Origin: a virus
Lineage: Duplodnaviria; Heunggongvirae; Uroviricota; Caudoviricetes
Virus record (IMG/VR): IMGVR_UViG_2648501839_000008
Reading direction: 5' to 3' (one strand)
DNA length: 64,000 bases
Under the pieces are notes generated by a model, which saw nothing but the letters and a program-made list of their open reading frames with translations, did not search any database and had not been told where the DNA came from. A program made the translations under genes and the position numbers. Of the stretch, positions 2,312-38,400 are shown in pieces; position 1 is the first letter of the stretch; every line of letters starts with the position of its first letter.

Positions 2312-2493
2312 CTTCTTTCTCGATAGGTAAGTGATTACCTATTTTTGCATTTGATTTTATGTATGGCAATCAAATAAAACGCGCCAGAAATGCGAACAAG
2401 AAGCTCTCTGGCGCGTTTTTGTGGTGCTGGGTATGGGTTAGCTTACCCAGCACTATAAAGCTCTCTATGGGCTTTATTTTCAGTAGGGGAACG

Positions 2494-6043: not shown

Positions 6044-7174
6044 TCACACCGCCACTGGAACCTTGATCCACGGTAGAGGGTCATAGCCAAGAATCAGAAT
6101 ATCGTCCCATTTGAAATCATCCAGCTCAGACCATTCATGAGGGAAAATAACGACCGGATCTGAATGCTCTGGAGCCTGTCGTTTCATTAGCTCACACACA
6201 CCTTCCATGTGGTTGTTGTACAAATGCACGTCAAAGCCAAAATGTACAAATGCACCGGCCATGTGACCCGTAATCTTCGCGAGAAAATGAGTGAGAATGC
6301 CATAGCCAGCAATATTGAATGGCATACCAACAAAAGTGTCTACGCTACGCTGTACGAGGCAGGAGTTGAGGATGCGTTTGGGGATTCCAAGTTCATCCAG
6401 TTCAGTTTCAGTAACACTGCCGTCCATCTCCAGATCGTATAGCATCTTGGTGTAGATAGACTCATAACCGAGGCGACTGTGTTGAAGACCAATGTCAGTT
6501 GCCATCGTTAAACGGGTTTCAAAATCAAGCTCACGACTCCACAAAGAGAAGACAAAGTGGCAAGGTGGCAGTTTCATATCCTCAAGCTCGCCTACGTTCC
6601 ATGCGTTAAGCATGATACGACGATCGGTGGGGTTCGTGCGCAGTGTATCGACAATACGCTGTAGCTGATCGATTTCACGGGACAGCACTACGCGATCTTC
6701 ACTGATACCCAGGTATCCCTCGACTTTGTACCCGCGTTCACGGAAAGTATCGATCTTGCTCAGATATTCACTATGGCTCACGATGCGGGTATCTTCCCAT
6801 CGACGCCACTGCTTACCGTAAACCGGCCCCAAATCGCCATTCTCATCGGCCCATGCATCCCAAATCTTAACGCCGTTATCCTTGAGAAATTGGATGTTGC
6901 CCGTGCCTTTCAGATACCACTCAAGTTCGACAAGCAGTGGCTTAAGATTTACCGCCTTTCCAGAAATAAGCGGCACAGTCCCACCAGTAAGCATGTAGTA
7001 AGAGGGAACGTAGCAGGTGCTTAAAGTACCAGTGCCTGTGCGATCATCAGCCTGCACGCCGCTTTTAAGCACCGTCTCAATAACTTTTGCATACGATGCG
7101 TTTGTTACCTGACCGTTCGTATGCTCACGATTCAAAAGGAGTGACACAAAAACCTCACAAAGATAAGTAATCAC
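6044..7174 (-). CDS. thyA: Thymidylate synthase with two internal insertions
   Basis: DRTGTGT, WNV.ELEDM.LPPCH (catalytic Cys) and DVHLYNNH motifs. The 7174 start is GTG with no RBS; an alternative GTG at 7147 has GAGGT upstream. Confidence 0.9.
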   Translation of the reverse strand: MITYLCEVFVSLLLNREHTNGQVTNASYAKVIETVLKSGVQADDRTGTGTLSTCYVPSYYMLTGGTVPLISGKAVNLKPLLVELEWYLKGTGNIQFLKDNGVKIWDAWADENGDLGPVYGKQWRRWEDTRIVSHSEYLSKIDTFRERGYKVEGYLGISEDRVVLSREIDQLQRIVDTLRTNPTDRRIMLNAWNVGELEDMKLPPCHFVFSLWSRELDFETRLTMATDIGLQHSRLGYESIYTKMLYDLEMDGSVTETELDELGIPKRILNSCLVQRSVDTFVGMPFNIAGYGILTHFLAKITGHMAGAFVHFGFDVHLYNNHMEGVCELMKRQAPEHSDPVVIFPHEWSELDDFKWDDILILGYDPLPWIKVPVAV

Positions 7175-7318
7175 TTATTCATTAAGTGAGTTTACATTTA
7201 TTGAGGGAACAAGGCCAGATAGATAAAAAAATGGTGGCCATAGGCCACCAAAAACGAATAGTTGTTTCAGAAATTTAACGCGCCAACGCAATATACACAG
7301 ATAGATAACTACCTACAA

Positions 7319-9513: not shown

Positions 9514-11829
9514 TCAGATTTTGCAGGCTCCGTCGCACTCATCTTCTGGCTCGACGGCTACAGCTTGCGTAAGTGGATTCTTCGGTTCGTCGTCATCACG
9601 CTTTCCTGCCCCATCTCTGGTGTTGTGGTAGTAAAGCGTTTTAACTCCCATCTTGTAGGCGAGAAGCAAATCTGACAGTAGCGTCATCATTGGGACTTTA
9701 TCGCCTTCAAAGCGAGAAGGGTCATAGTTGGTATTGGCTGAAATAGCCTGGTCAAAGAACTTCTGGATGATCGCCACCTTTGTCAGATAGCCGCGGTTGT
9801 CCGGCATATTCCACAGGTATTCATACTGCTCCTTCAGTTTTTCAAACTCAGGCACGACCATCTTAACGATGCCGTCCTTAGAAGATTTCACCGACACCGG
9901 TCCACGAGGCGGTTCGATGCCGTTGGTGGAATTAGTGATCTGGCTGGAAGTCTCGCATGGCATTTGTGCCGTCAGTGTGGAGTTGCGAAGGCCGTATTTT
10001 GCAATACGCTCACGCAGTTCTTCCCACGGCATCTTTAACTCAAAGTTGGTTTCGCCGCTTTCGTCTAATGAAGAACGGTAATGGTCGATCGGCAACTGAC
10101 CAATTGCGTATTTGGTCTGCTCAAACCAGTCACACTCACCTTTTGCTTCGGCAAGTCGGCAGCTGGCGTCAAGAAGGTAATACTGGACAGCTTCGAACGT
10201 TTCATGCACCAGTTTATTGCCAGCGGTATCAGAATAACGAACGCCATTCTTTGCCAGGTAATAAGCAAAGTTGGTTACACCGATTCCCAGGCTACGACGA
10301 GCTTTGGCTGGCACTTCGGCTGCCTCCATCGGATAGTCTTGATAATCCAGTAACGAATCCAGTGCAGCAACGGCATAGAATGCCACCTCTTTAAGAGACT
10401 CCAGTGAACGAATGGCTCCGAGGTTAAAAGCGGATAAAGTGCACAGCGCGATCTCACCGTTCGGGTCGTCGGTAAATGTCAGTGGACGAGTAGGTAAAGT
10501 GATCTCCATACACAGGTTTGACTGGCGGACAGGTGCAAGAGCAGGAATGAAAGCGCCATGCTCATTAATATGATCGACGTTCGCAATATAAATTCGGCCC
10601 GTGGACGCTCGTTCCTGCATCAGAGATGAGAACAGCTCAATGGCAGGTACTGACTTCTTGCGAATTGAATCATCGGCTTCGTATTTATGGTACAGCTTTT
10701 CAAACAGATCCTGGTCTGTGAAGAAGGCTTCGTACATATCAGGCACATCATGCGGGCTGAACAGAGTGATGTTCTCGCTTCTGACGAGTCGACGGTACAT
10801 CAGACGGTTACTCATGACGCCGTAATCAAGATGGCGAACGCGGTTTTCATCGATACCACGGTTATTTTTCACCACCAGCAGACTTTCAACTTCAAGATGC
10901 CAAATCGGGTAAAACGCTGTTGCTGCGCCACCACGGACACCACCTTGCGAGCAAGATTTAACAGCAGTCTGGAAATGCTTCAGGAATGGAATAACTCCGG
11001 TATGGGTGGCTTCACCATTGCGGATCTCGCTGCCAAGCGCACGGATACGGCCAAAACCAATACCAATTCCAGCACGACGTGAAACGTAGTCGATAATTGC
11101 GGCTGAAGCTGCACTAATACCTTTCAGACTATCGCCAGACTCAATCAGCACACAACTGGAGAACTGACGGGTTGGAGTACGGACGCCGGCCATGATTGGT
11201 GTGGGCAGAGACAGTTTGAACGTACTTGTAATGTCATAGAAACCTTTGACCATCTCCATACGTGTTTTGCCCGCGCAGTCGTCTTCCCAATTCTGGAACA
11301 GACACATGCCAACCAGCATATAGATATGTTGCGGACCTTCGTGAATCTCACCAGTAACACGGTTTTGTACGAGATATTTGCTTTGCAGCTGCACCGTAGC
11401 CGCATAGCCAAAAAGATCGTCACGTTTAGGCTTAATGTAATTGCCGAGTTCTTCGATCTCTTCAAACGAATAATGTGTCAGCAAATCCTTGTCATAAACG
11501 CCCTTGTTAACGTTCTTGACAATGTGTTGGTAGAAGTTCGGATAGTCGTAACGACCGAAGGCATCTTTGCGGATTTTAAAAATGTTCAGGCGGGCAGCCA
11601 CCTGTGAGTAATTTGGTGCTTCCGGTGAGATCAAATCAGCGGCAGATTTAACCAAAGCCTCATGCAACTGGCTGGTGGTCATCCCATCAAAAATGCTGGC
11701 CGCAGCTCCCATTGCTACAGCGGATGCGCTTACGCCACGAATGCCTTCTACGCCATACATTACGACGCGGTTGTATTTTTCTTCGGATAACGGCTCTGTT
11801 TGGCCGTTACGTTTTACGATGCTTATCAT
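9514..11829 (-). CDS. nrdA: Ribonucleotide reductase class Ia large subunit
   Basis: 771 aa, colinear with E. coli NrdA (YLVQNRVTGEI, PTPIM.GVRTPTRQFSSCVLIE, SNLC.EI, ends GACKI). No intein or intron interruption seen. Confidence 0.95.
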   Translation of the reverse strand: MISIVKRNGQTEPLSEEKYNRVVMYGVEGIRGVSASAVAMGAAASIFDGMTTSQLHEALVKSAADLISPEAPNYSQVAARLNIFKIRKDAFGRYDYPNFYQHIVKNVNKGVYDKDLLTHYSFEEIEELGNYIKPKRDDLFGYAATVQLQSKYLVQNRVTGEIHEGPQHIYMLVGMCLFQNWEDDCAGKTRMEMVKGFYDITSTFKLSLPTPIMAGVRTPTRQFSSCVLIESGDSLKGISAASAAIIDYVSRRAGIGIGFGRIRALGSEIRNGEATHTGVIPFLKHFQTAVKSCSQGGVRGGAATAFYPIWHLEVESLLVVKNNRGIDENRVRHLDYGVMSNRLMYRRLVRSENITLFSPHDVPDMYEAFFTDQDLFEKLYHKYEADDSIRKKSVPAIELFSSLMQERASTGRIYIANVDHINEHGAFIPALAPVRQSNLCMEITLPTRPLTFTDDPNGEIALCTLSAFNLGAIRSLESLKEVAFYAVAALDSLLDYQDYPMEAAEVPAKARRSLGIGVTNFAYYLAKNGVRYSDTAGNKLVHETFEAVQYYLLDASCRLAEAKGECDWFEQTKYAIGQLPIDHYRSSLDESGETNFELKMPWEELRERIAKYGLRNSTLTAQMPCETSSQITNSTNGIEPPRGPVSVKSSKDGIVKMVVPEFEKLKEQYEYLWNMPDNRGYLTKVAIIQKFFDQAISANTNYDPSRFEGDKVPMMTLLSDLLLAYKMGVKTLYYHNTRDGAGKRDDDEPKNPLTQAVAVEPEDECDGACKI

Positions 11830-11846: not shown

Positions 11847-11868
11847 GGGCCACTAAATATAGTGGCCC
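11847..11868. other. Perfect 8-bp-stem hairpin in the nrdA 5' leader
   Basis: GGGCCACT-AAATAT-AGTGGCCC palindrome between a palindromic box (11878-11895) and the nrdA start. Confidence 0.4.
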
Positions 11869-11902
11869 ATGTTAATAGATAAGCACTTACCTATCAATGA
11901 AA

Positions 11903-15360: not shown

Positions 15361-16446
15361 TCACACAGCCTCCGAACTCTCCGCTTCGGTGAGGATTTCC
15401 TGACACAAAATATCCAACTTGCTCAGATCAAATCCGCCGTCAGTATCGTGGACAATCTTGCAATAAGCGGATACCGACTCTCCCAAGCTATCGATTTTGC
15501 TGGTTTCCGTTGTGCTTGCTGTCCCTTCCATCATTGATGACTTACGGATGAAGTTGCACACGACACCTTTTGCACCCATTGTTTTGAGGATGTTCTGGTA
15601 CTTAATGCCTTCTTCATCGTTCTCAATTACGGCGCGGAAACGCACGTAGTTGCCGCGAATTTGGTCATCGGCAACATAATCTTCCAGGTTAATGAATTTA
15701 GGCGCACTGGTTTCGTAGTGACTGAAACTGCCGTCCGGGTTTACGATCATGTAACCAGCCAGAGATCCAACATCTCCCCAATTTTGATGGGTCAGCGCAC
15801 CGACACTGATAACTCCAGGAATGACCTCTTTGTGGTTGTGGTAATGCCCACTAAGCACGAGACGAAAGCCGATATCCTTTAACTCCTGCGCATCGATACC
15901 GACGTCAGGCATTGTTGGAATGGCTTTGTTAATGGATGTATGGATAACAACGTCATGATTATCACCTTCTACGATCTTACGTAATGCTTTCAGATCGCTG
16001 ATAAGCTCTGCATGATTGTTACGCCAGCTAATCAGGTGGACAGTCACATCACCAATTTTTATTGAATGTGGGCGCTTGCCACATACGATTACCACGCCGA
16101 TAGAACTCAGCGATGCTGCTGCGTTGGCGCTATATACTGAATCGTTGGTTTCAAGATCGTGATTACCGGCCAGCATTACTACTGTCAGATCAAGCTCGTT
16201 GATAATCCACTTGTACGTTTCAGTTACGTAATGCAAAACAGAAGGGGACACAGTCCCTCGGACGTGAAATGTATCACCGGCAACCAACATGTACTTACAA
16301 CCGGCCTTCTTCATGGCGATGGCTGCTTCTTTCGTTGCTTCCAACTGTATTTCAAGTCTGGAGTTAAGCCCCTCAGCGTTCGTCGTGGAGAACGCATCCC
16401 ATTTGTGGTAGTGGCAGTCAGAAATGACGCCGTATGGCAAAGTCAT
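15361..16446 (-). CDS. sbcD: SbcD/Mre11-like nuclease (calcineurin-like phosphoesterase)
   Basis: ISDCHYH, VAGDTFH and LAGNHDLE metallophosphatase motifs; conserved initiation box directly upstream of ATG 16446. Confidence 0.85.
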   Translation of the reverse strand: MTLPYGVISDCHYHKWDAFSTTNAEGLNSRLEIQLEATKEAAIAMKKAGCKYMLVAGDTFHVRGTVSPSVLHYVTETYKWIINELDLTVVMLAGNHDLETNDSVYSANAAASLSSIGVVIVCGKRPHSIKIGDVTVHLISWRNNHAELISDLKALRKIVEGDNHDVVIHTSINKAIPTMPDVGIDAQELKDIGFRLVLSGHYHNHKEVIPGVISVGALTHQNWGDVGSLAGYMIVNPDGSFSHYETSAPKFINLEDYVADDQIRGNYVRFRAVIENDEEGIKYQNILKTMGAKGVVCNFIRKSSMMEGTASTTETSKIDSLGESVSAYCKIVHDTDGGFDLSKLDILCQEILTEAESSEAV

Positions 16447-16661
16447 GTGTTTTTCCTTTGTGGTTATTTTGATACAAATTTTAAGAGCAATGAGAAGGTA
16501 AACAACTATGCATAACGGTATGTTAGGAATGAAACGAGCGACTTAATATACAAAATTTATAAGTAAGTATATACCTATTTATTGTGACGCAACTTTGCTT
16601 GTCTGTATGACTAAAAATAAGACAGGATCACTGTAGAACGCTATGAGAGCTATTTTGAGGA

Positions 16662-17510: not shown

Positions 17511-17544
17511 AGCCGCGCCACGACTGGTCTGAAGCCATGTTCAT

Positions 17545-17646
17545 GTATGCTGCCAGCGGTAATTGATAGTCTGTCAACGGTTCGCCGTATGCTGCCAACT
17601 GTTTTTGGTATGCTGCCAGCGGCAAATCAAGTATGCTGTCAGCGGT
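17545..17646 (+). repeat. Upstream iteron set: four direct 16-bp repeats
   Basis: Copies of GTATGCTG(C/T)CAGCGGT at 17545, 17587 (degenerate), 17608 and 17631, all in one orientation. Confidence 0.85.
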
Positions 17647-17666
17647 TGAATGACAAAGGTGTCCAC

Positions 17667-18761
17667 ATGTCCACAAAAAATAAAAAAGGTAAAAATAACA
17701 AAGAAGTAGAAGATAATCTCGACAACTTTGAAGAAGGTTCCCTTGAATTGTACACAGGGGAACTTGTCCCTAATAGCAACAATACAGTCCAACCAATTGC
17801 GTTGATGCGGCTGGGGTTGTTCGTGCCCACGCTCAAGGGGACAAAATACAGCAAGCGTAACAAGCCAAATGAGATCGATGCTTCAAAGGAGCTTGTTCAG
17901 CTCGAAGTAGCCCGTTCTGAAGGCTATTCCGATATCAAGATAACCGGTCCTCGTCTCGACATGGATCATGATTTCAAAACGTGGGTGGGCGTTGTGCGTT
18001 CGCTGGCAGAATACGGCGAACCTAACGGTCGTGTCGAGTTAAGCATCACGAAATTTGCGAAGTTTTGTGGCTATCCATCGTCACAGATCCGCAAAACACT
18101 CCGCGACCGGCTTACAAACAGTCTTTTGAAGATCATGCGTACAACTCTGTCTTTCCAGAGAACGTATGAAGAAAAGAACGTCGACGGCTCTAACAAGATC
18201 TCGCTTCTGATGGTGCACCTCATCAATAGCGTGGACTACAACGAGCAGAAAGATACGGTGGTGTTCTATGCAGAACCGAAGCTGGCCGAACTATATCGCT
18301 TTGACCATAAGGTTCTTTTGCAGTTAAAGGTTATCAATAAGCTACCACGCAAAGAAACAGCACAGGCTCTGTACACCTTCATCGAAAGTCTTCCAACCAA
18401 GCCTGCGCCGGTATCGCTTGCTCGATTGCGTGCGCGACTCAATTTGAGTAGCAGGAATGTCAGCTCGCAGAATCAGACTATACGTAACGGCTTAAAAGCT
18501 CTCCAAGATTTGGGCTATCTCGAATACAGCGAGATTAAGCGTGGGCGGTCGATCTATATCCAGATTCACAGCCGCAATCCAAAACTCAAAGTCGCACCGC
18601 CAAAACCTGAAGACATCGAACCCAAAAAACCAGATGAGAAAGCTGGGGAAATTGATGCCAAACAGAACATTATCAACAAGATAACCGAACTTTCGCAGAA
18701 TTTGACGCCTGAAAATATCAAGATGATTGAGATCCTTTCCAATAGTCTCAAACTGCTTTGA
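17667..18761 (+). CDS. repA: Plasmid replication initiator RepA (P1 RepA-like)
   Basis: NNTVQPIALMRLGLFVP, ITGPRLDMDHDFKTW and YTFIESLP match P1 RepA as recalled. Start set at ATG 17667; the ORF-track start at 17547 would translate the iterons. Confidence 0.85.
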   Translation: MSTKNKKGKNNKEVEDNLDNFEEGSLELYTGELVPNSNNTVQPIALMRLGLFVPTLKGTKYSKRNKPNEIDASKELVQLEVARSEGYSDIKITGPRLDMDHDFKTWVGVVRSLAEYGEPNGRVELSITKFAKFCGYPSSQIRKTLRDRLTNSLLKIMRTTLSFQRTYEEKNVDGSNKISLLMVHLINSVDYNEQKDTVVFYAEPKLAELYRFDHKVLLQLKVINKLPRKETAQALYTFIESLPTKPAPVSLARLRARLNLSSRNVSSQNQTIRNGLKALQDLGYLEYSEIKRGRSIYIQIHSRNPKLKVAPPKPEDIEPKKPDEKAGEIDAKQNIINKITELSQNLTPENIKMIEILSNSLKLL

Positions 18762-19293
18762 TATGCTGTCAGCGGTGAAATGTATGCTATCAGCGGCTAT
18801 TTTTCTGAAAAGTATGCTGTGAACGGTTAAAGATATGCTACCAGCGGTATAGTGAGATGAACGTATGCTGTGAGCGGTAAATCATCTATCACCACTCAAT
18901 GCTCTGTCATACCTCCCCAGTGGTTACTAACCTCGAAGAGTGCATTCCATATAGGTTTGCGCTCACTAACATTCTATTGCTATTGCGCTGATTGCTTGTA
19001 GTGAAAGGCATTTATTGCCTGCTACTCCCTGATAGAACGTATGCTGTCAGCGGTGTTTTATTGAGGAATTTTTGTTTGGATATGCTATCAGCGGTAATTA
19101 ATGGCATATGTCAGACATTCGTATGCTGCCAGCGGTAATTTTGTTCTGGTTATACCCATACCGGTACACATTATTCATGCAATGTCTTAAGTATGCTGCC
19201 AGCGGTAAAAAATCGAGTAAAGTATGCTGTGAGCGGTGAGATAGACTCTCGATATGCTATCAGCGGTAGTTGATTGTGTATGCTGTCAGCGGT
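18762..19293 (+). repeat. Downstream iteron sets: two clusters totalling about 12 direct repeats
   Basis: (G/A)TATGCT(G/A)(T/C)(C/G)A(G/A)CGGT at 18762, 18782, 18812, 18834, 18863, 19039, 19080, 19121, 19191, 19222, 19252, 19278; about 150 bp without repeats separates the clusters. Confidence 0.85.
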
Positions 19294-19309
19294 GACGACT
19301 ATGAAATAT

Positions 19310-19331
19310 GACTGCGGAACGTGCCGCAGTC
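19310..19331. terminator. Hairpin after the minus-strand operon ending at 19341
   Basis: GACTGCGG-AACGTG-CCGCAGTC inverted repeat. Confidence 0.45.
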
Positions 19332-19340
19332 AGTTTGCAT

Positions 19341-19553
19341 TTAGTGTATTTTCTTTAACAGACCCCAAAGTGTTCCGGCTTTTGTAGTCAGTTTTCCTGT
19401 TTCTGGATCGTACATACGCCATTCACGCCGCTGGTGGACGATATACCCATCTTCACGTTCCAGACGCTCAAGAATGCCAGGTTGCTTGAAACCCTTAGCA
19501 CGCCAGTAGCCGCTTGTTTTCTCGATTTCCAGACCTGCCAGTGTTAATGCCAT
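19341..19553 (-). CDS. Hypothetical protein
   Basis: 70-aa ORF, translationally coupled to the upstream gene. Confidence 0.5.
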   Translation of the reverse strand: MALTLAGLEIEKTSGYWRAKGFKQPGILERLEREDGYIVHQRREWRMYDPETGKLTTKAGTLWGLLKKIH

Positions 19554-19888
19554 TATCCAACCTCCTTGCAGTCATCGAAAAGGTAGCTTTGCTGAGAAGC
19601 GTGAACGCCATAGAAGCCCTTGTATTTGTTGTATACGAAGTGGTCTTCTCCGACGCCGGTTAATTTGCCATTACGGTTTGTGAGATATGGGGATGACAAT
19701 ACTCGATCGTCACGCACAACATAGAACTGGTCGCCGCTGTCTACGACCATCGCTCCATATGGTGCTTTTATGACGTCGGTAAGAGCGCCATTCTTAACGT
19801 CGGCTACAGACATTTCACACTGATAAACAGTGGTGTCGGCCACAACGATCGAAGAAAGGAACAACAGCGCGAATGGGATGGCCTTCAT
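19553..19888 (-). CDS. Hypothetical secreted protein
   Basis: N-terminal signal peptide (MKAIPFALLFLSSIVVA); 111 aa. Confidence 0.55.
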   Translation of the reverse strand: MKAIPFALLFLSSIVVADTTVYQCEMSVADVKNGALTDVIKAPYGAMVVDSGDQFYVVRDDRVLSSPYLTNRNGKLTGVGEDHFVYNKYKGFYGVHASQQSYLFDDCKEVG

Positions 19889-20064
19889 GCTGCCACCTCT
19901 TTGATTACATCAAATGCTGAATTAAATACGAGCACGATAGCCAAAGCGTTTATGACTACGTCGTTCACCGGGGAAAAGACTTTACGAATGACACCAGTGA
20001 AAATGCAGTCGATGACAAAAGCTATTGACACGATGAGTAACAAGTATTCAATAAAAATCTTCAT
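19885..20064 (-). CDS. Small hydrophobic protein, about 59 aa (below ORF-track cutoff)
   Basis: ATG at 20064-20062 opens a hydrophobic ORF whose stop overlaps the next start (ATGA); translated by hand. Confidence 0.3.
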   Translation of the reverse strand: MKIFIEYLLLIVSIAFVIDCIFTGVIRKVFSPVNDVVINALAIVLVFNSAFDVIKEVAA

Positions 20065-20103
20065 GATAGGTAGATACTAACTTATATAAATTTTACTGTA
20101 AAC

Positions 20104-21986: not shown

Positions 21987-22053
21987 GTGTTTTCCTATGT
22001 GGTTGTTATGCGAAAATAATAAGTAAGTACTTATATATTTTCAAGAGATAAAA

Positions 22054-24425: not shown

Positions 24426-25454
24426 TTACAGAGAGTCCAGCTCTCTCAGTAGGTCATCCAGACCTTCATCTTCCGTCGCAGATGCGGTTGCTACAGATGT
24501 CGCTGCGACTGCTTCAGACTCTTTGACTGATACGGCAACGGCAGCGGAACTTGCCTCTGGTTTAAATTCAGTTTCAACGGCACGGAGGATTTCTTCATCA
24601 ACCAGACTGGTTGGTTCAGAAGCCGGTGTGTGCGCGGTTGCTACAGCCGTCGCTCCTTCTGTATGACCAGTGACAGAGCCAAATCCAGGTAGTGCCGCAG
24701 CCGATGTTTTCGCGGTTGAGGAAATTGCTGGTGCAGATGCTGCGGCAGTTGGTGCAGCGATGCCAATCAGACGACCCATAGTGCGAACTGTCGACAGAAG
24801 ACGAGTTTCATCAGCCTGATTTGCGTATGCGATCAGATCATGCTGGGTGTTCCAGAATTTATCTTCGATATCGCCTTTGTAGACTTTACGCTTAGGCGAG
24901 ACGTCATATTTGGTATCGCGACCAGAGCCAGTACGTTTAATCAGGAATGCGTAGCCTTCCTCTTTGCTCAGTGGATTGCCGATATCATCAGCGATGTCTT
25001 CGGTGATTGCTTTGCAGATATCATCGAATACAGTAGACGGCAGCTCGATTAACTGGCATTTCTCAGCATCTGCGAAATCCTCACGAGCAGAAAGAATGCC
25101 GTTGACCAGGTAGCGAGGAGTGGCACGCATTTGACCGATGCGTTCTTCCATTGCTTTGTTACCCTTGTGACGAGCGCGACCTTCCATCACCATTTCGCAT
25201 AGCTGACAAGCGCGACCGTGAGTATGTTGCTCACAAATATAAGCGTTGGTTGCTTCTTTACCTTCCTCGTTCTGATACTTAACGTAGTGCATACCGAAAG
25301 TCTGGAAGAACTTACCGTTTGGGTCGTCTTTATTCGGGAAGATGCGGATATAGTTGACGCCGTCTTTTAAACGAGTCAGATCAACGTTGTTGCCACGTTT
25401 GGCGGCAATGTCTTCACGAGTTTTGTTAAGCAAATCAAGTAATGTCTTAGACAT
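24426..25454 (-). CDS. Single-stranded DNA-binding protein (T4 gp32-like)
   Basis: Cys/His zinc-binding pattern (CEQHTHGRACQLC), Ala/Ser-rich linker and acidic C-terminal tail (EDEGLDDLLRELDSL). Confidence 0.65.
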   Translation of the reverse strand: MSKTLLDLLNKTREDIAAKRGNNVDLTRLKDGVNYIRIFPNKDDPNGKFFQTFGMHYVKYQNEEGKEATNAYICEQHTHGRACQLCEMVMEGRARHKGNKAMEERIGQMRATPRYLVNGILSAREDFADAEKCQLIELPSTVFDDICKAITEDIADDIGNPLSKEEGYAFLIKRTGSGRDTKYDVSPKRKVYKGDIEDKFWNTQHDLIAYANQADETRLLSTVRTMGRLIGIAAPTAAASAPAISSTAKTSAAALPGFGSVTGHTEGATAVATAHTPASEPTSLVDEEILRAVETEFKPEASSAAVAVSVKESEAVAATSVATASATEDEGLDDLLRELDSL

Positions 25455-25571
25455 GTGTTTCTCCTTGTTGTGATTTGGCCGATGGCGCTATGCGCGTTGG
25501 GCTTTCGTTCATTCGTGGCTCTTTCGAGCTGTTAAATGATAGATCAGTACTTACTTATTATCTATCAAAAA

Positions 25572-26003
25572 TCAACGGGGAGTAATAAAGCGTTCAGAGC
25601 CTAATCGCTCTAATTCAACGATAGCCATCTTCGACGCCTGAACGATCATGTCTCGGCGATGCGAAAAGGCGGCGACAGCATGTTTGTATATGTCTGCGAT
25701 GTGCCGTGCTTCATCCAACTTCTGCCGTTTAGACAGATACTGTGGGTTTGTTTTAACCTTAGCGTCTAGTACAGATTCGTTAAACTTAATGCCGTTCATA
25801 CTCAAGTTTTTACGCTCTGTGTCGTATAGCTTTGCTTCAACAGCTTCAAGGTTAAGTTTTGCCTCTGCGACACTTCTTTCTGCATGGGCGAGCTTTGAAC
25901 CATACTCCATCAACAGGCGAGGTTGTTTACGCCAGACGTCTTCCAGATTGTCTCTGTCAAACTCGAGATCAGACATTATTTTCTCGTAAATATCGGTGTT
26001 CAT
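25572..26003 (-). CDS. Hypothetical coiled-coil protein
   Basis: 143-aa ORF. Confidence 0.55.
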   Translation of the reverse strand: MNTDIYEKIMSDLEFDRDNLEDVWRKQPRLLMEYGSKLAHAERSVAEAKLNLEAVEAKLYDTERKNLSMNGIKFNESVLDAKVKTNPQYLSKRQKLDEARHIADIYKHAVAAFSHRRDMIVQASKMAIVELERLGSERFITPR

Positions 26004-26146
26004 ATTGATATGCTCAAACTTACTTTCGTGTATCTGATTATATCAAACAAATAGAGCTTTACTGTCATGATTGGCGGTAGACAGTATCGGCGCTAAGGTG
26101 CAGAATCAGGAGGCACACCGAGCAAAGCAAATTGAGAATAAAACCA

Positions 26147-27130
26147 ATGGATAAGGCTAACAAACAAGTCAAAGCAACAAAGTCAGTGCCGACTAAAAAA
26201 ACAGCCCTCCCCCCAAAAGCTAAGTCTGTAAAGCCAGCGGCAGAAAAGAATAAAACTGAAGGTATGACATATCCGAAAACCAGTGCGGATGGACACGCTG
26301 GAGAGTACTTGTTTGCCTATTGGATTTCTCGTTATTTCAGATGGCCTTGTCGATTGCTAGATATTGATATGGGATTGGATGCTCAGGTTGAAATATATGA
26401 AAATAATCTTTCGACAGGTTTTTTTATCGGCGTTCAGATAAAAACCACCTCACGCAAAATGAAGAGAAGGTTAAGCGTACAAATACCTTATAAAAATATA
26501 ACCTATTGGGGAAGTTGTGATTTTCCTGTGGTAATTGTTTTGATATGCCTACACGATGATAATGAATTAGACGAACCTGCTATTTATTGGAAGCATTTAG
26601 ATAAAAAAACAATTTCTAAAATAAAGGATAAAGCATTAAGAAGTGACTCTGGATGTGCTCCTGTAACTTTCAATAAGGATGATTATCTGTCTGAATGGGC
26701 AGACAAACAAAAGTGGGTCGACATGTGGCTTACAGAAGAAGATAAAGAGATAATTGAGCTTGCAAAGCGAGTAAACAAGACGTTGCTAGAGATAGGTGTT
26801 CCTCTTGATAAATTCGGAGACGAGTATGACCGCAGCACCTACCTGTGTAGCCCTGAGCGGGTAGTACCAGACTTGAACTCTATGATGAATGAATATGAAA
26901 AAATAAATAACCATATACGTGTAAAGCGTCGATTAGTAGAATTCGATCCTGTAGTGTCGATTTGTTCACAAAATTATGAAAAGTATCTACCTAAAATCCT
27001 TGAATATTTTGAAGATGTGGTCGCACGTAGTGTCGGTTCATACTCGATTGCAGAACATTTCGAACCATACAGTGATCGTAATCATATTCTGAATCGAATA
27101 ATTATAGAGAAAGCCCCTAATTCAAGATAG
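26147..27130 (+). CDS. DUF4365-like (Mrr-like PD-(D/E)xK fold) protein with uncharacterised C-terminal domain
   Basis: Plus-strand, AT-rich gene in a minus-strand backbone. GHAGEYLFAYWISRY..DIDMGLDAQVEI..GVQIKT matches the DUF4365 signature as recalled. First ATG is 26147; the track start 26132 is TTG. Confidence 0.6.
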   Translation: MDKANKQVKATKSVPTKKTALPPKAKSVKPAAEKNKTEGMTYPKTSADGHAGEYLFAYWISRYFRWPCRLLDIDMGLDAQVEIYENNLSTGFFIGVQIKTTSRKMKRRLSVQIPYKNITYWGSCDFPVVIVLICLHDDNELDEPAIYWKHLDKKTISKIKDKALRSDSGCAPVTFNKDDYLSEWADKQKWVDMWLTEEDKEIIELAKRVNKTLLEIGVPLDKFGDEYDRSTYLCSPERVVPDLNSMMNEYEKINNHIRVKRRLVEFDPVVSICSQNYEKYLPKILEYFEDVVARSVGSYSIAEHFEPYSDRNHILNRIIIEKAPNSR

Positions 27131-27136
27131 TCAAAT

Positions 27137-27164
27137 GAAAAGCTCGTCAATTGACGAGCTTTTC
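27137..27164. terminator. Bidirectional terminator hairpin between convergent genes
   Basis: GAAAAGCTCGTCAATTGACGAGCTTTTC perfect palindrome between the plus-strand gene and dnaE. Confidence 0.6.
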
Positions 27165-27303
27165 ATTAGGCGACTTTCTTACCAAAAATATTGGATAGCG
27201 TGACTCTGGTCTGGCGCTTCAGCCTGTACTGTCTCACATCGCCAATCTTGTTTACTTCCATAAACTCTTTGCTCTTTGGCCACCTTCATGGTGTTCGCTT
27301 TGT

Positions 27304-30300
27304 TCATTTGCTAATAGTCTCCGCTACCTCTGCAAGAATTGCTTCCAGCTTTTCGCCTTCCTCTAGGCGAAAGTACAAAATATTCGGGTTAAATCCGTAG
27401 AAAACAGTCACATCCAGCTCCGGCAGATACTCTTTGCGTCCAACCAGGTCGGATGGTTTGCTCTTGTTGTTGAAGAGCGATGTCGCCCGGCTGCCACACG
27501 TCAGCACATAGGTTGGACGCACCAGATTGATCTCTTCACGCATAAAGTCGGTGAACTGGCCGATCTCGTCTTTGGTGTAGTCTTTTTCTTTGTCTTTAAC
27601 CTTCTTGCAAACGCCTGTGACATAGAGATCGCCCATGCGTAAATCTCCAGCCGTCAATAGCTTGGCCTTAAAATCGTCGTATCCGTTCTCCATAAAGTAA
27701 CCGGTTCGAGCATCATTGCCGTTCGCATTGTCCAGAATGATCATGATTTTCGGCTTAATACCAATGCTGGGGCGGATTAGTTCATCACCTAAGCCCATTT
27801 CAGCCGCCATCCGTGTCATGAGCACGTTAATCTCAGCCGAACGTTTGGGGTTCATCTCAAACGGACGTGAGGCTTTAACTGCGTCTATGACAAGGTTTCC
27901 CATCAATTCAGCCTGGTCGCGTAGGCGCTCTGGATCAGTTGCTGGCAGACTACCTGGCTCGATGGATGCAAACGCCCCTACTTTTTGCAGCGATTCGCGC
28001 ACTCGACTATTACAGGCACGTTTCTCGACAGCTTCTTCGAATTGCGCCAGTGACTCGAATTTGCCGCCAACTTTTTCTCGCGCTCTCATGATGGCTTGGC
28101 AGCCATTCTCAGAACACCCCTTCACAGCAGAGAAGGGCGCATACAGCACCTGGCTGCCATCTTCAAGCGTGCGGATCTCGATTCGGTTGGATGACACGTT
28201 AACGTCTGGTGGCAATACGCGAATACCATAGGTCAGCGCATCTTTAACCAGCCCCTGGTGTTTATCTTCGCCAAGAATAGTGAGAGCAGCAGCGAAAAAC
28301 TCTGCGGGATAATGAGTTTTCAACCACATAGATTGATAACTGATCAAGGAGTAAGCAACAGAGTGTGATTTGTTGAACTGGTAGGCACCATTTTTTTCGA
28401 ATGCGGTCCAGATCTCCTTCGCTTTCATCTCTGATAGCCCTGGGTGTGACGCTGTCACGCGTACTGCGTTTATAGGTAGTTTTGCGCCGTGTTCAAGCGC
28501 CTCTTCGACAGTTTTCAGTGTTCCGTCTTCGCATTTAAAATGTTCCGCACGGTGAATGCGCTGTGTAGTGCCATCTTCCAGCTCAACGTCTATCCAGCCA
28601 GCTTGAGCCTGAACGATGAACTTCTCACCCATGCTCTTCATTTTCTCCATGTCTTTTTTGCCGATCGCTTTACGAACGCCGTCAGCTTCAGCCATTGTGA
28701 AGCCCGCAAGCAATCGAGTCGCGTTCATCGTCTGTTCCTGATAAAGAATCACGCCATTTGTTTCTGCGGTAAGTTCATCAAGAACGGGGTGTAATGATTC
28801 CGGCGTCATAAAGCCTTTGGCGACAGAAACATAATCATCCAACATGCCTGACTGAATTGGCCCCGGCCGGAAGAGCGCAGTCGTAGCAACGACCGTTTTA
28901 AAGCTCATTGGCTCAATTCCACCACCTAAATCTTTAAGCAGCTTGCGCATTGGGCCTGATTCAAGCTGGAAAACACCTTGAGTGTACCCAGCAGCAAAAC
29001 CATCCAGCACCTTGCGATCTTCAAGAGAAATGGCATCAAGATTGATATCCTCACCTGTGTTCTCTTTAATGTAGCGTTTTGCACTATCGAGCAAATCGAG
29101 AGTCGCCAGGCCAAGTACGTCCAGCTTAATTAGGCCCATAGCCTCGCAGTAACGCTTGTCAAATGCGATACAACGCGCGTCACCACGTCGTTCAACCGGT
29201 GTTCGTTCTGTCAGAGGAACACCTGCTACGATCATCCCTGCCGCATGTCTACCATAGCCACGCATAAGGCTTTGTAACTTGCAGGCTGCATTGAATGCAT
29301 CAGGATATTTTGTCGCGTATTTGTCGAGGCTTGCCAGTTGTTCGCGCAGCTCTTCCAATGGAAGGCTATCATCCTCGACGTTCTTCAGTTCTTTTGATAC
29401 CGCCATATCTGCGGACTCCACACCATAAATACGAGCGGTGTCACGTAGTGCAGAGGCCGCGCCCAGGTAGGTGAAGTTCGGAATGCCTGCAACGTAATCT
29501 TCGCCGTAGCGTTCATTCAGATACTCGATCACCTCATGGCGACGTGCCTGGCTGAAGTCCAAGTCCGCATCTGGCAAGTCGAGACGCTCAGGGTTGATGA
29601 AACGTTCAAACAGAAGACCGTGACGGATAGGGTCGACGTTGGTTATGCCTATGCACCATGCCACCAAAGAGCCAGCGGAGGAACCACGACCAGGCCCGAC
29701 AGGAATGCCAGTTTCACGGCTGTGATTCATCAGATCGCGTACCATCAGGAAGTAACCACAAAATCCCAGGCGAGTAAGCGTGTCCATTTCGTACTTAAGT
29801 CGCTCAACATAAACCCTGTTCTCAGAAGCCGGTGGTGTGTAGCCAAACTCTTTTGTGGTAAGACGTTTACGCAGCCCAGCAACGGCCAGTTTCATCAGCG
29901 TTGCAGGCTCGTCGTCTGCCATCTTTGGCAGTGCTGGTGGCAATTCATGCCAGCGCCATGTGCAGGCATCGATAATGGTATCCTGCGTTGTTGAGGCCAT
30001 TGCAGCTGTTACCGGCACATCCATGCGAACGGAGAAGGCTTTCAGCGCCTCAAGGAGATGGCGGCGACCATTGACGGCGTTATCTCGCTGGTGGGGGATA
30101 CGCAGACGATGCGGCTGGTCGATTTTGATGTTGTTCGTAACCATGTGCGCAATGTCTTTAATGTCTGCATCGTCGATCGATTCGTAATAAGCGGGATAGA
30201 ACGCTACTGGCTCTATTTTCAGTGCGCTGGCGACTTTCATCGCCCGGACGTTAATCTGGTCGTAGAATGGGGTAGGGTGCGGATAAACCACACTATAGAA

Positions 30301-31002: not shown

Positions 31003-32238
31003 TTAACCAAATATTTTTTGAACAACTTCACGTGCCGCTTGCGCAGAAGCTGAAGGGAGTTTGTTAATGAAAGAACGCTCAATACCTGTCACAAAGTCGC
31101 CTCGCATCATTCCAATCTTGGCCGACAACAAAAGTTCACGAGGGCCAATCGGCTGACTGATCAGGTGTTCTTCGTATCCATCGCGAACGATACCGGCAAA
31201 CTTAACCATCTTTTCAGCGTATTCATCCACGATGCCAGCATTTATCAACATGCTGATCTCTGCCTCTTTGCTCATGTATTTCACATTCGAAACGATGCCA
31301 AAACGCGAAAAGTTAGCGGCGTTCTGGATGTTTGTACCCTGGTACAAGCCGGTTTCATCACCAGATCCGTTCGTGTTGCCAGTGCCAATGAAAGCAAACC
31401 GTTCATGCGGAGTAATGCGACGCCATTCTGGAGTCGCCTCTTTGATGACCAACGCTTCACCTTCCAGCACTGGCTGATACACGCCAAGAATCTGTGGAAA
31501 CGCAAAGTCGTATTCATCCGCGAGGTAAACCCAGCCATGCTTCATTGCGAGCGCAAGCAAGCCAGGCTCGAAATACGTAGAGCCATCACGCGCCAGAATT
31601 TGTCCCGTAACATGAGCCTCTTCCATTGATGCTGTATGTTGGGCACGGATTAACGGACGATTGAGCAAAGCACATAGTTGTGTAGGCAATGAAGATTTGC
31701 CTGTTCCTGCATGACCCCACAAATAGCCTGGTATGCCAAGTTCAAGCATCATGAAAATGTCTTTGATCAGTTCGAAGTCGCCATATACGTATCCCTTCTT
31801 CACTTCTGGAACGAACTCTGGAAACGGCGTATTGACGTTGACGCTAACCATGAGCGGCGTCCCACGTTTTGTTCCGAGTTCTTTCACCGTTACATTTAGC
31901 AGTTCGTGAGCTGCGACCAGATCTGTCTTGTACTCAACTGTGCCTGTATAGCCTGGGCTATTGGTCACGCCAGATGATTTGGCCATTTCGCTTTTTTGCT
32001 CGGCACGTTTAGCTTGAATTGCATCAAGTGCCTTTTTCGATAGCGTTGGCTCATCTGGAAACTGCGTTGTGTACATTTTCAGTACGGTGTCAGGATCGGC
32101 ATCTTTTACTGACTCAGGAATGCCCTCGCAATTACCATTGGCTACATGGGACTTAAAATAGTGAAATGATTTTCCGCACCACTTGCAAACAAGGTAATCA
32201 GAAGGATTTTTTTCATTTTGCAGTGCAGTAGTAGTCAT
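31003..32238 (-). CDS. AAA+ ATPase, MoxR/CbbQ-like (phage CobS-like)
   Basis: Walker A LWGHAGTGKSS with an N-terminal Cys cluster; paired with a downstream vWA protein. Confidence 0.8.
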   Translation of the reverse strand: MTTTALQNEKNPSDYLVCKWCGKSFHYFKSHVANGNCEGIPESVKDADPDTVLKMYTTQFPDEPTLSKKALDAIQAKRAEQKSEMAKSSGVTNSPGYTGTVEYKTDLVAAHELLNVTVKELGTKRGTPLMVSVNVNTPFPEFVPEVKKGYVYGDFELIKDIFMMLELGIPGYLWGHAGTGKSSLPTQLCALLNRPLIRAQHTASMEEAHVTGQILARDGSTYFEPGLLALAMKHGWVYLADEYDFAFPQILGVYQPVLEGEALVIKEATPEWRRITPHERFAFIGTGNTNGSGDETGLYQGTNIQNAANFSRFGIVSNVKYMSKEAEISMLINAGIVDEYAEKMVKFAGIVRDGYEEHLISQPIGPRELLLSAKIGMMRGDFVTGIERSFINKLPSASAQAAREVVQKIFG

Positions 32239-32333
32239 GCGTTTTTCCTTTGTTTTCTAATGAGCTTTCAACTTCTTATATAAATATACCATCAAATATC
32301 GTAAGTGATTACTTATCATTAAGGCTATTCTAA

Positions 32334-38382: not shown

Positions 38383-38400
38383 ATTGCACTGTTCAACAAA

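Follow-up and report, generated by a model that had tools for sequence, protein, structure and literature searches.

A dispersed 20-bp palindrome as the probable operator of a global regulator in SSU5-type phage-plasmids

The C1 protein of phage P1 is the immunity repressor of a plasmid prophage, with many operators dispersed over a genome of ~100 kb, each heading a lytic function. It lacks an autocleavage domain, its operators are asymmetric 17-bp sites serving mainly early functions, and late promoters are activated by Lpa. Mycobacteriophages L5 and Bxb1 carry ~30 stoperators per genome, asymmetric sites of 13-14 bp located in short intergenic gaps in one orientation relative to transcription. 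Several stoperators are not linked to a promoter and presumably silence genes by obstructing polymerase. In plasmid RK2, KorA and KorB coordinate expression of replication, transfer and partition genes through short palindromic operators at many promoters of one replicon.

Here, we analyzed a 64,000-nucleotide stretch of DNA (the window) from an SSU5-like phage-plasmid with ~98% identity to Escherichia phage Cyrano. It contains a genuine recurrent box that lies between genes, is associated with predicted promoters, and has dyad symmetry but no covariation. The box is deeply conserved, with an altered sequence in one distant lineage. By analogy, the box would work like the P1 C1 or L5 gp71 systems, and it is a member of neither sequence family. 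As in P1, the putative operators of a plasmid prophage are scattered at the heads of lytic functions and the candidate repressor has no autocleavage domain, but the SSU5-type site is a symmetric 20-mer common to early and late operons, and the candidate is a small XRE-type helix-turn-helix (HTH) protein with no detectable similarity to C1. As with stoperators, there are ~30 intergenic sites per genome, some without an obvious promoter, whereas the boxes are symmetric and most overlap promoter-like sequence; across 96 sites, the box is not an asymmetric, orientation-dependent site of the P1 C1 or L5 type. The resemblance to KorA/KorB lies in the use of short palindromic operators at many promoters of a single replicon, although the proteins and sequences are different and a viral lytic program would be controlled. 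Restriction-modification C proteins and the N-domain of lambda cI share, according to structure modeling, the HTH fold of the candidate repressor, but have one or few operators per system versus ~30 for the SSU5-type box. A description of the motif was not found in the accessible full-text literature, and no account of an SSU5-type lysis-lysogeny switch was found there or in a phage-plasmid review.

All 15 boxes listed in a preliminary description of the window are present, at coordinates that are exact or off by 1-3 nt. The consensus is a fixed 20-bp dyad, ATARGTAAGT-ACTTACYTAT (hyphen at the center), and a 4-nt period runs through the palindrome (ATAA GTAA GT-AC TTAC TTAT). A weight matrix built from the 15 boxes gave leave-one-out scores of 14-32 bits. 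With both strands and overlapping registers included, the window contains 49 matches scoring ≥12 bits, versus 0.39 in 100 dinucleotide-type shuffles, showing that the enrichment is real. When the arms ATARGTA/TACYTAT were searched with ≤1 mismatch, a 6-nt spacer was found 10 times, a 2-nt spacer seven times and a 10-nt spacer once, with no other spacers between 0 and 10 nt and 0.00 matches in shuffles. The 2-nt-spacer matches are mostly internal registers of the 20-mer, and hence the unit is a fixed 20-bp palindrome. The variable spacer of 2-6 nt originally proposed was consequently rejected as an artifact of the 4-nt periodicity: only spacers of 2, 6 and 10 nt occur, in one 4-nt phase, and the spacer-2 matches represent internal 20-mer registers or copies with one degenerate outer half. 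A different spacing considered for Klebsiella pFF979 proved to be the same register mixture as in the window.

The placement of the boxes between genes was borne out, as 20/20 sites scoring at least 9 bits with a symmetric matrix are intergenic in a window that is ~86% coding and ~14% non-coding. Beyond the 15 boxes, we found a variant at 34957-34976 (discussed below) and ~5 weak sites. One of these (1282-1301) combines a good half-site (ATAGATAAGT) with a degenerate half and has stronger orthologues in SSU5 and Klebsiella; another (7297-7316) lies immediately 3' of a MazG-like gene, and a third (42622-42641) lies 14 nt 5' of ORF 42137-42607 (minus strand). The remaining two are weak motif-like centers, at 1660-1679 within a ~60-bp inverted-repeat element (CCTGCTTCCGTATA...TATACAGAAGCAGG) and at 48192-48211 within a second copy of that element (~48170-48230).

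To characterize the symmetry of the box, we took 96 non-redundant sites, drawn from 10 elements, and aligned them in the direction of their genes. Base preferences were the same in both halves, and mirrored columns were indistinguishable. Watson-Crick matches at mirrored positions equaled the expectation for independent halves (e.g., 44 versus 40.8, 52 versus 51.9 and 41 versus 42.1), and compensatory changes were absent from all 10 mirrored pairs. A hint of strand polarity in the 15-site alignment (a better upstream half and A/C asymmetry at positions 4/17) disappeared with 96 sites and the symmetric matrix. Equivalent halves that vary independently are indicative of duplex DNA recognized by a symmetric protein, rather than of an RNA hairpin. 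The earlier proposal of a dyad-symmetric operator for a dimeric regulator is thus supported at the sequence level by equivalent halves, fixed spacing and lack of covariation, which would suit a dimer or a dimer of dimers. A palindrome acting in RNA or as a cruciform, via a hairpin that affects processing or stability, termination, or the control of translation, would be in keeping with the copies located in 5' leaders right before the ribosome-binding site. Such a hairpin could, for example, be the target of an FljA-like protein encoded elsewhere in the genome; FljA binds the fliC mRNA leader, and an FljA homologue (PF03614; described in Pfam as "Repressor of phase-1 flagellin") is present in Cyrano, SSU5 and pJN2-26. 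We nevertheless rejected the hairpin, which is extremely unlikely given the zero compensatory changes over 10 mirrored pairs, A-C and G-T combinations on both strands, absence of strand polarity in the 96 sites, and the many copies upstream of predicted starts. The motif also lacks the T-run of an intrinsic terminator. The FljA-like protein was likewise dismissed as a binder, as the symmetry tests speak against an RNA target, and is probably encoded by an accessory gene (moron).

The boxes precede a broad range of genes in the window, the genes given with coordinates here being on the minus strand. The leftmost copy (110-129, 30.4 bits) abuts the stop codon of an RNase H-like gene (129-719), upstream of a gene running off the left end of the window, and the orthologous site is kept in Cyrano, SSU5 and pJN2-26. 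The copy at 2323-2342 is 11 nt 5' of the ATG of an adenine methyltransferase gene (1718-2311) and overlaps the -10/+1 region of a conserved predicted promoter, TTGCCA-17-TGnAAAAAT (2369-2341). The thyX gene (6044-7147) has a box directly 5' of its SD and GTG (7163-7182; alternative register, 7159-7178), with an intrinsic terminator (7250-7232) ~50 nt upstream of the box. Upstream of nrdA (9514-11829), the box at 11875-11894 is located within the predicted promoter TTGATA-17-TAACAT (11897-11869) and is followed by a conserved GC hairpin (11868-11847). At 20066-20085, the box holds the -10 (TAGTAT) of the conserved predicted promoter TTTACA-17-TAGTAT (20102-20074); the ATG of a small ORF (19885-20064) is only 1 nt past this box, so the mRNA may be leaderless. 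The box at 22019-22038 (alternative register, 22015-22034) follows a terminator (22074-22054), precedes membrane-protein and stomatin-like genes, and fills the spacer of TTGAAA-17-TATTAT; this promoter, noted in the preliminary description, was recovered by our promoter scan at 22044-22016 (minus strand). Ahead of a gp32-like SSB gene (24426-25454), the copy at 25539-25558 covers the spacer and -10 of TAGATA-17-TATCAT (25564-25536).

Other copies are found near extended -10 elements or within leaders. The box at 16559-16578, upstream of sbcD (15361-16446), has an extended -10-like element 9-10 nt downstream, and the one at 32297-32316 is upstream of a CobS-like ATPase gene (31003-32238). The strongest copy (39977-39996, 34 bits), with an extended -10 (TGTGTATAAGAT) 8 nt downstream, is upstream of the region leading to a tRNA cluster (39228-38575). 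Similarly, the copy at 43499-43518 is upstream of ORF 42675-43457 and has an extended -10-like element (TGTGTAAGAAT) 7-9 nt downstream. The box at 36989-37008 is ~13 nt 3' of the -10 of a predicted promoter (TTGATC-16-TATAAT, 37049-37022), in the leader of a glutaredoxin gene (about 36700-36945). The copy at 48069-48088, 12 nt 5' of the ATG of ORF 47316-48056, is downstream of a conserved TTCCAA-17-TATCAT, and would therefore be part of the 5' leader, immediately ahead of the SD. Upstream of the holin/lysis cassette (53597-53920), the box at 53983-54002 is followed ~20 nt downstream by a conserved TGATATAAA, which places the box center near -42. The last copy (59350-59369) is upstream of the tail-fibre gene (56748-59306) and is followed by a GC hairpin.

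Association of the box with predicted promoters, as previously suggested, was indicated by both the promoter scan and orthologous alignments. Of 26 minus-strand promoter-like matches predicted in 60 kb, 7 fell on six box sites, with promoter-like matches overall being fewer than in shuffles. In alignments of orthologous regions from four genomes, -35 and -10 elements were conserved, with differing offsets to the box (at least five registers). Relative to these sigma-70-like promoters, boxes occupy many registers from about -42 to +15: at -10/+1 (Dam), in the leader (hyp31 and thyX), around the -10 (hyp60), in the spacer (memb56 and gp32), between -35 and -10 (nrdA), or in place of the -35 (sbcD, tRNA cluster, cobS and Ead). 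Hence, the alternative suggestion of a conserved promoter-spacer element does not hold generally, as the box is in the -35/-10 spacer only at some sites, and elsewhere replaces the -35, overlaps -10/+1 or is in the leader. Every register is inside the RNA polymerase footprint, matching the expectation for steric repression. Several sites have weak promoter matches only, and an evident promoter is missing at some late-region sites, namely those between terL and portal and between the major capsid gene and a terminator. The idea that the box itself serves sigma-70 or a phage sigma factor as a -10 or extended -10 was also rejected, as TAAGTA and TACTTA lack a T at -7. TATyAT at positions 18-23 is equally common on both strands, and so belongs to the dyad. 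For annotation of SSU5-type elements, the motif offers a practical guide to promoters and to the limits of operons.

In the Cyrano genome, 28 of 30 sites scoring at least 10 bits are intergenic and located ahead of early and late lytic genes. The box was described initially as controlling early promoters, a restriction that fails, since late genes have it too, namely holin (53983) and tail fibre (59350) in the window and portal, tail and other structural genes in the remainder of the genome. No site was found in Cyrano ahead of repA, parA, toxin-antitoxin genes or the MinD-like gene. Genes reported as expressed in the LF82 lysogen of Cyrano include genes of these kinds and CYRAN_45 (PMC9928086), and comparison with that expression list shows that genes expressed in the lysogen are mostly without a box. 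An exception is CYRAN_81, which has a weak upstream site yet is expressed in the lysogen (PMC9928086).

The best candidate binder is a predicted 128-amino acid XRE/lambda-repressor-like HTH protein encoded at 35005-35391 (plus strand), mentioned in the preliminary description as the HTH protein of the window, and homologous to the "putative repressor" CYRAN_45. Its gene is oriented opposite to the lytic genes, and the arrangement of integrase, repressor, small divergent ORF and cobT is found in every lineage examined. The HTH matched phrog_8 (E 1e-11) and Pfam HTH_19 (19.7 bits, below the 30.2 cut-off). A single-sequence structure model has pLDDT values of 84-92 over residues 11-50, and its fold matches were C.AhdI (rmsd 2.2 Å over 62 columns), the lambda cI N-domain, Stl and HigA, all weak (E 0.04-0.4). 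Sequence comparison with the PDB gave no informative match, and NCBIfam has no family for the repressor or its small neighbor. The recognition helix (NANN[LI]SLIKSGK) is conserved across the lineages examined. The gene occurs in 865 plasmids, with genus counts that are those of a core gene. A predicted promoter for the repressor gene (34931-34958, plus strand; TTTACA-16-TAATAT) has -35 and -10 elements conserved in five lineages, and the weaker, variant operator at 34957-34976 (ATCGGTAAGCACTTACCAGA) is located at its predicted +1. This variant box is conserved in elements of E. coli, Buttiauxella, Yersinia, Kluyvera and Klebsiella.

On balance, we think it probable that the box, at ~30 copies per genome, is the operator of the element's own global regulator, most likely this XRE-type repressor. 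Which protein binds, whether it represses or activates, and where transcription starts are inferred here from sequence. Under the proposed mechanism, the 20-bp dyad would be bound by one symmetric dimer or, in view of the 4-nt period, by two that are staggered, at ~20 copies in the window, each overlapping or closely following a host sigma-70-type promoter at the head of a lytic unit. Genes for nucleotide metabolism, for replication and recombination, for lysis and for the tail would belong to the units controlled. An occupied operator would prevent RNA polymerase from binding or from escaping the promoter, keeping the whole lytic program silent during plasmid replication, while the weaker operator at the +1 of the repressor's promoter may confer negative autoregulation. 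A 20-bp operator marking essentially every lytic unit would provide a regulon map together with a candidate master repressor. If so, repressor-expressing cells are predicted to be immune to SSU5, and deletion of the gene to cause derepression. SSU5-type phage-plasmids are abundant, with the repressor gene present in >800 plasmid records (Klebsiella, Escherichia, Enterobacter, Yersinia and Salmonella), and the group includes carriers of resistance genes.

Silence of box-linked genes in lysogens fits a missing activator equally well. Under this alternative, the box binds an element-encoded activator, or is read by a phage-modified RNA polymerase, and lytic promoters are switched on after induction, as modeled on P1 Lpa, Mu Mor/C or T4 MotA. 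A class of sites lacking a -35, with an extended -10 located 8-10 nt past the box (sbcD, tRNA, cobS, 43499 and Ead), the holin-site box centered near -42, and the lytic growth of SSU5, which retains all sites, are in line with activation. Nonetheless, there is no fixed distance from box to -10 once the symmetric TATyAT flank is discounted, and sense-specific -10-like hexamers are scattered from about -17 to +35 relative to the box. At several sites, the box coincides with the predicted start or follows it, with 1-15 nt separating it from the start codon, and early and late genes have the same box. Several linked promoters are near-consensus at both -35 and -10, so activation should be unneeded. 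We therefore regard an activator as unlikely.

Comparison with related elements is informative on the link between the box and the candidate repressor. Sites at orthologous positions occur in elements from E. coli, Salmonella, Klebsiella, Buttiauxella, Kluyvera, Xenorhabdus and Morganella. In the Acinetobacter AB-group relative, a different palindrome, ATMAGTCAGT-ACTGACTKAT, is found at the positions orthologous to the sites of sbcD, gp32, cobS, cobT and holin and to two sites in the intergenic region of the repressor, and the repressor homologue of this relative is 48% identical with a differing helix (RPNVLSMIKSGE). SSU5-type arms were not found in the Acinetobacter AB-group element, nor AB-type arms in the window. 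The operator thus seems to change together with the repressor helix, a co-variation seen in a single divergent lineage with another host, and, if the repressor reading is correct, the Enterobacterales and Acinetobacter groups are predicted to be heteroimmune. Among distant NrdA relatives in viral contigs (L031, 61% identity; L033-L041), no box of at least 14 bits was detected, and a quick palindrome search of L031 yielded nothing convincing. Phage SSU5 itself lacks the integrase-repressor module and keeps 28 sites; its contiguous junction is shared by 0/822 plasmid relatives. Loss of the module with retention of the sites is what one would expect if lytic growth does not need the repressor. 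SSU5 sites show no decay despite the missing repressor, however, suggesting that another binder is possible. Moreover, the same motif occurs in elements whose repressors are only 37-66% identical. Such conservation is unusual for a phage immunity determinant, and a conserved host factor would fit too.

Other candidate binders encoded by the element include two conserved ParB_N proteins (homologues of CYRAN_119/120), one box being 14 nt upstream of the first. The boxes could accordingly represent dispersed centromere-like or KorB-like sites, with roles in partition and long-range silencing. Dispersed partition sites affect phage gene expression in N15, and KorB of RK2 is a global regulator. This explanation is very improbable here, as the Pfam match covers the ParB N-terminal domain only, the genes are beside ATPase and acetyltransferase genes rather than parA, and ~30 sites right on core promoter elements are untypical of centromeres.

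A host factor that would account for the deep conservation of the motif across hosts is the nucleoid-occlusion protein SlmA, a TetR-family protein that binds its sites (SBS) as a dimer of dimers. At the boxes, SlmA could silence the promoters as a co-repressor contributed by the host; alternatively, its recruitment and activation there could block host division upon amplification of the element. The published 12-bp SBS is GTGAGTACTCAC, with G, T, A and G strict at positions 1, 2, 4 and 5, any purine at position 3 (the A variant has a Kd of ~60 nM) and any pyrimidine at position 6 (PMC3020112). The consensus core of the box, GTAAGT-ACTTAC, obeys this rule (PMC3020112). The 20-bp SBS consensus (GTAAGTGAGC-GCTCACTTAC, hyphen at the center) has the same length and center as the box, with 7/10 exact matches per half-site, or 8/10 if T and C are treated as equal at position 10 (PMC4423959); position 10 is a pyrimidine in 92/96 sites, and position 11 a purine in 94/96. 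Box and SBS are alike in being 20-bp dyads in which (n)AGT recurs every 4 nt. A promoter with an SBS in its -35/-10 spacer is repressed by SlmA, and multicopy SBS plasmids block division (PMC3573117).

Box and SBS differ, however, in base preference, location and evolution. Position 7 of the box is A in 91/96 sites and G in 0/96, and position 1 is A in 82/96, whereas the SBS has G at both; SlmA itself is indifferent between purines at box position 7 (SBS position 3), unlike the boxes (PMC3020112). Conservation within the core is lowest at the SlmA-critical A8 and G9 (72% and 60%), a perfect critical core is present in only 10/96 sites, and 72/192 half-sites fit GTRAGY. Critical SBS mismatches number zero in 10, one in 39, two in 25 and three to four in 22 of the 96 boxes, although bona fide SBS17 and SBS12 also carry 1-2 critical mismatches when aligned here (sequences from PMC4423959). 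Morganella and Xenorhabdus elements keep the outer arms while the core turns to TTCACA, TTCGAA or TTTTAA, and the Acinetobacter relative has C at position 7. Chromosomal SBS in E. coli are mostly in coding regions (2/24 intergenic; PMC5519180), compared with 20/20 intergenic boxes. In addition, tblastn detected no SlmA homologue encoded by the elements, and an element-encoded SlmA/TetR homologue was rejected as the binder. Taken as the explanation of the boxes, SlmA is thus doubtful and rather improbable.

The two proteins need not be exclusive: it is conceivable, if unlikely, that operators of Enterobacterales SSU5-type elements have converged on, or been shaped to overlap, the SBS, such that SlmA and the repressor share or compete for ~30 sites per copy. 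A functional match to SlmA sites would tie a plasmid prophage to the control of host division. In that case, ~5 plasmid copies per cell would already outnumber the 24-52 chromosomal SBS sites, and lytic amplification would create thousands of new sites, leaving SlmA active cell-wide and host division blocked. Alternatively, SlmA would be a co-repressor provided by the host that links induction to the state of the nucleoid. A perfect SBS core is present in the variant box at the promoter of the repressor gene (34957-34976), and the switch itself could then be under the influence of SlmA.

A palindrome of the form ATAAGTA-N(2-6)-TACTTAT had been described from at least 15 intergenic regions of the window, and all 15 listed boxes were found in its sequence. 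Aligned on the gene strand, they fall without gaps onto a perfectly palindromic 20-bp consensus (left half ATAAGTAAGT, right half ACTTACTTAT), with leave-one-out weight-matrix scores of 14-32 bits. The weight matrix gave 49 matches of at least 12 bits in the window versus 0.39 in shuffled controls, and an unbiased count placed TACTTAT among the most over-represented 7-mers (14 observed versus 3.6 expected). When arms ATARGTA/TACYTAT were allowed at most one mismatch, ten matches had a spacer of 6, seven a spacer of 2 and one a spacer of 10, with none at other spacers in the window and none in shuffles. The variable spacer of the preliminary description is an artefact of the 4-nt period of the motif, the spacer-2 matches being mostly registers within the 20-mers. 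All 20 sites scoring at least 9 bits with a symmetric matrix lie between genes, in a window that is ~86% coding; beyond the original 15, we found five copies of lower score and, at 34957-34976, a variant. Judged from sequence, the box is a highly non-random, deeply conserved 20-bp dyad and a candidate operator, standing at the heads of ~20 transcription units in the window and ~30 per genome.

The first 20 kb of the window are ~98% identical to Escherichia phage Cyrano (OV696614), which E. coli LF82 carries as the phage-plasmid pLF82; Salmonella phage SSU5 and Klebsiella phage-plasmids show ~76% identity to the same stretch. Whole-window blastn recovered Cyrano-like blocks for tail genes, lysis, partition, replication, recombination and nucleotide metabolism. 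Since several blocks lack a megablast match to Cyrano (17533-19341, 26002-27317, 36956-38397, 43527-44693, 48236-49984, 51119-52505 and 54003-56187), we regard the window as a mosaic relative of this phage. Nearly all window genes lie on the minus strand. Several of the replaced modules are flanked by boxes, which may coincide with module boundaries of the mosaic.

In Cyrano, 30 sites score 10 bits or more, 28 of them between genes. These precede early genes (gp32-like SSB, nrdA, thyX, dam, sbcD and the helicase region) and also late genes (portal, tail, tail fibre and holin), so the earlier restriction to early promoters is too narrow. No site of at least 10 bits precedes Cyrano's repA, parA, toxin-antitoxin genes or MinD-like gene. 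At orthologous positions, 28 sites occur in SSU5 and 32 in Klebsiella phage pJN2-26, and aligning the orthologous intergenic regions with MAFFT shows the box as an island of conservation. The motif is kept in elements with a CobT protein only 41-59% identical; Morganella and Xenorhabdus elements retain the outer arms ATAnGTA-N6-TACnTAT around six variable central bases.

Sites were pooled from the window, Cyrano, SSU5, pJN2-26 and 22-kb loci of Buttiauxella, Yersinia, Kluyvera, Morganella and two Xenorhabdus species, and removal of near-identical contexts left 96. With positions numbered across the dyad, half-site counts were T2 94/96, A3 88, R4 51 A and 35 G, G5 81, T6 96, A7 91, A8 69, G9 58 and Y10 92. 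When sites were oriented by gene direction, base preferences of the left and right halves were statistically indistinguishable, and Watson-Crick combinations at all ten mirrored pairs matched the expectation for independently varying halves, with A-C and G-T combinations seen on either strand. The absence of a Watson-Crick excess argues against hairpin selection as the reason for the dyad. Equivalent, independently varying halves imply that the dyad arises from each half matching the consensus, as for a symmetric DNA-binding protein, which supports the dimeric regulator proposed initially.

A consensus scan of the minus strand found 26 sigma-70-like matches in 60 kb, seven of which fall on six boxes; both 10-of-12 minus-strand matches within 20-40 kb are located on boxes. 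In alignments, the -35 and -10 elements are conserved among orthologues, and their register to the box differs by site. The box fills the spacer of TTGAAA-17-TATYAT at 22019, as first noted there, and at a Cyrano portal-internal site, while at nrdA (TTGATA-17-TAACAT) the order is -35, box, -10. The end of the -10 lies within the box at dam (TTGCCA-17-TGnAAAAAT); the box at 20066 (TTTACA-17-TAGTAT) contains the -10 and ends 1 nt from the ATG, and that at 48069 (TTCCAA-17-TATCAT) occupies a leader position 12 nt before the ATG. At sbcD, the tRNA cluster, cobS, 43499 and Ead, an extended -10 follows 8-10 nt past the box, which stands in place of a -35; at holin, TGATATAAA lies ~20 nt past a box centred near -42. 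The shortest gaps from box to start codon are 1-15 nt. Across the 96 sites, a positional count showed that -10-like hexamers favour no one offset, and TATyAT at positions 18-23 belongs to the dyad, because it is equally frequent on both strands. The proposed promoter association is supported in that some predicted promoters lie on boxes; a fixed promoter-spacer element is not supported, as registers vary. The same spread does not fit an activator site or alternative promoter. A spread of registers, always inside the polymerase footprint of these predicted promoters, is what steric repression predicts.

Running opposite to the lytic genes, the gene at 35005-35391 encodes a candidate repressor identical to CYRAN_45. 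This 128-aa protein matches phrog_8 (transcriptional regulator, E 1e-11) and, below threshold, Pfam HTH_19; the fold of a model predicted from the single sequence (pLDDT 84-92 for residues 11-50) matches C.AhdI, the lambda cI N-domain, Stl and HigA. In every lineage the gene order is integrase, repressor, small divergent ORF and cobT. Repressor identity between lineages is 37-66%, with a conserved helix (NANN[LI]SLIKSGK; AHNNISMLKSGK in Morganella and Xenorhabdus), and the gene occurs in 865 plasmid records, with almost the same counts per genus as the core SSB gene. Its predicted promoter, TTTACA-16-TAATAT, has the variant box ATCGGTAAGCACTTACCAGA at the predicted +1, conserved in five lineages, which suggests autoregulation.

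According to the LF82 study, expression in the Cyrano lysogen is confined to CYRAN_45 (the putative repressor), toxin-antitoxin genes and a small number of other genes, and ciprofloxacin induces the phage (PMC9928086). A good LexA-box match (CACTGTATAAGTAAACAGTA; CTGT-N8-ACAG) at 36518-36537 precedes the integrase gene (35386-36489, minus strand) by ~30 nt. The convergent integrase and repressor genes overlap at their 3' ends, and SOS-induced integrase transcription would read into the repressor gene in the antisense direction. Cyrano has a second LexA box at 89277, ahead of a UmuD-like S24 peptidase gene. Among Cyrano genes, CYRAN_43 is reported to reach by far the highest expression in the lysogen, 723 times background (PMC9928086); it encodes a 184-aa protein (phrog_28788; Cyrano 40268-40822), adjoins a LexA box and has no box upstream. 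It has no blastn match in the window, where 36956-38397 is a replaced block. SSU5, which was isolated as a phage and has been suggested as a cocktail component (PMC7969092), lacks the integrase-repressor module and retains the boxes; its contiguous junction was found in none of 822 plasmid relatives.

Repressor homologue and box also differ together in one relative. In an Acinetobacter baumannii plasmid of the related AB group, the repressor homologue is 48% identical with helix RPNVLSMIKSGE, and 40 kb hold 11 copies of a different 20-bp dyad, ATMAGTCAGT/ACTGACTKAT; these occupy orthologous positions at sbcD, gp32-like, cobS, cobT and holin, with two in the repressor intergenic region. SSU5-type arms are absent from this plasmid, as AB-type arms are from the window. 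A Klebsiella plasmid with a 101-aa homologue keeps both helix NANNISLIKSGR and the SSU5-type arms. Such co-variation is the pattern expected of an element-encoded binder, here in one divergent lineage whose host also differs.

Host SlmA is a rival binder. Its published binding sequence (SBS) is GTGAGTACTCAC, with strict G, T, A and G at positions 1, 2, 4 and 5, any purine at 3 and any pyrimidine at 6 (PMC3020112); biochemical work used a 20-bp consensus, GTAAGTGAGC/GCTCACTTAC (PMC4423959). Box and 20-bp SBS share length and centre, the box core GTAAGT/ACTTAC and the variant core GTAAGC/ACTTAC (34957-34976) satisfy the published rule, SlmA represses through an SBS in a promoter spacer, and multicopy SBS plasmids block division (PMC3573117). 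However, among the 96 sites position 7 is never G and position 1 is mostly A, conservation within the core is lowest at A8 and G9, which are critical for SlmA, and only 10/96 have a perfect critical core. The core is lost in Morganella, Xenorhabdus and Acinetobacter elements, chromosomal SBS sites lie mostly within coding DNA, and the elements encode no SlmA homologue; SlmA is thus not our main explanation. On sequence evidence, the mechanism with most support is that an XRE-type repressor encoded by the element globally represses its lytic programme; this protein would occupy the boxes and, through the weaker variant site at its promoter, regulate itself. The multi-operator regulon logic resembles that of P1 C1 and the L5 repressor, but site sequence, symmetry and protein set the present system apart from both. 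A description of this box or regulon was not found in the searchable literature.

Other elements were also observed. GC-rich stem-loops lie within 5-10 nt past many boxes (at 11847-11868, past the 25539 and 59350 boxes, and at the tail, L and Ig sites of Cyrano), their pairing kept through differing sequences between lineages (tail-gene arms GCGCA/TGCGT, GTGTC/GACAC and GCACC/GGTGC); they could be 5'-terminal stabilising hairpins or attenuators, and those at nrdA and after the capsid gene look like terminators past the box. A ~60-bp inverted repeat, CCTGCTTCCGTATA-(AT-rich)-TATACAGAAGCAGG, with a weakly box-like centre, occurs at ~1640-1700 and ~48170-48230, and Cyrano, SSU5 and pJN2-26 have orthologous copies; aligned over 145 columns (~130 nt including the element), the two window copies are 78% identical. 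Eleven direct copies of GTATGCTGYCAGCGGT, which look like replication iterons, surround a repA-like gene (17667-18761, plus strand), four upstream (17545-17654) and seven downstream (18812-19293); as this region has no Cyrano match, the replicon module of the window differs from that of Cyrano. Four tRNA genes (Ser-tga, Thr-tgt, Tyr-gta and Asn-gtt; 38575-39228, minus strand) lie ~750 nt downstream of the strongest box (39977); the annotation of Cyrano has three tRNA genes and SSU5 has one. A conserved FljA homologue (PF03614, "Repressor of phase-1 flagellin", E 1e-80), outside the window at Cyrano 100780-101301 and present as SSU5_121 and pJN226_0046, may be an accessory gene altering host flagellin expression. 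The tail-fibre gene contains an internal 120-bp tandem repeat (56947-57219; 2.3 copies, 75% match).
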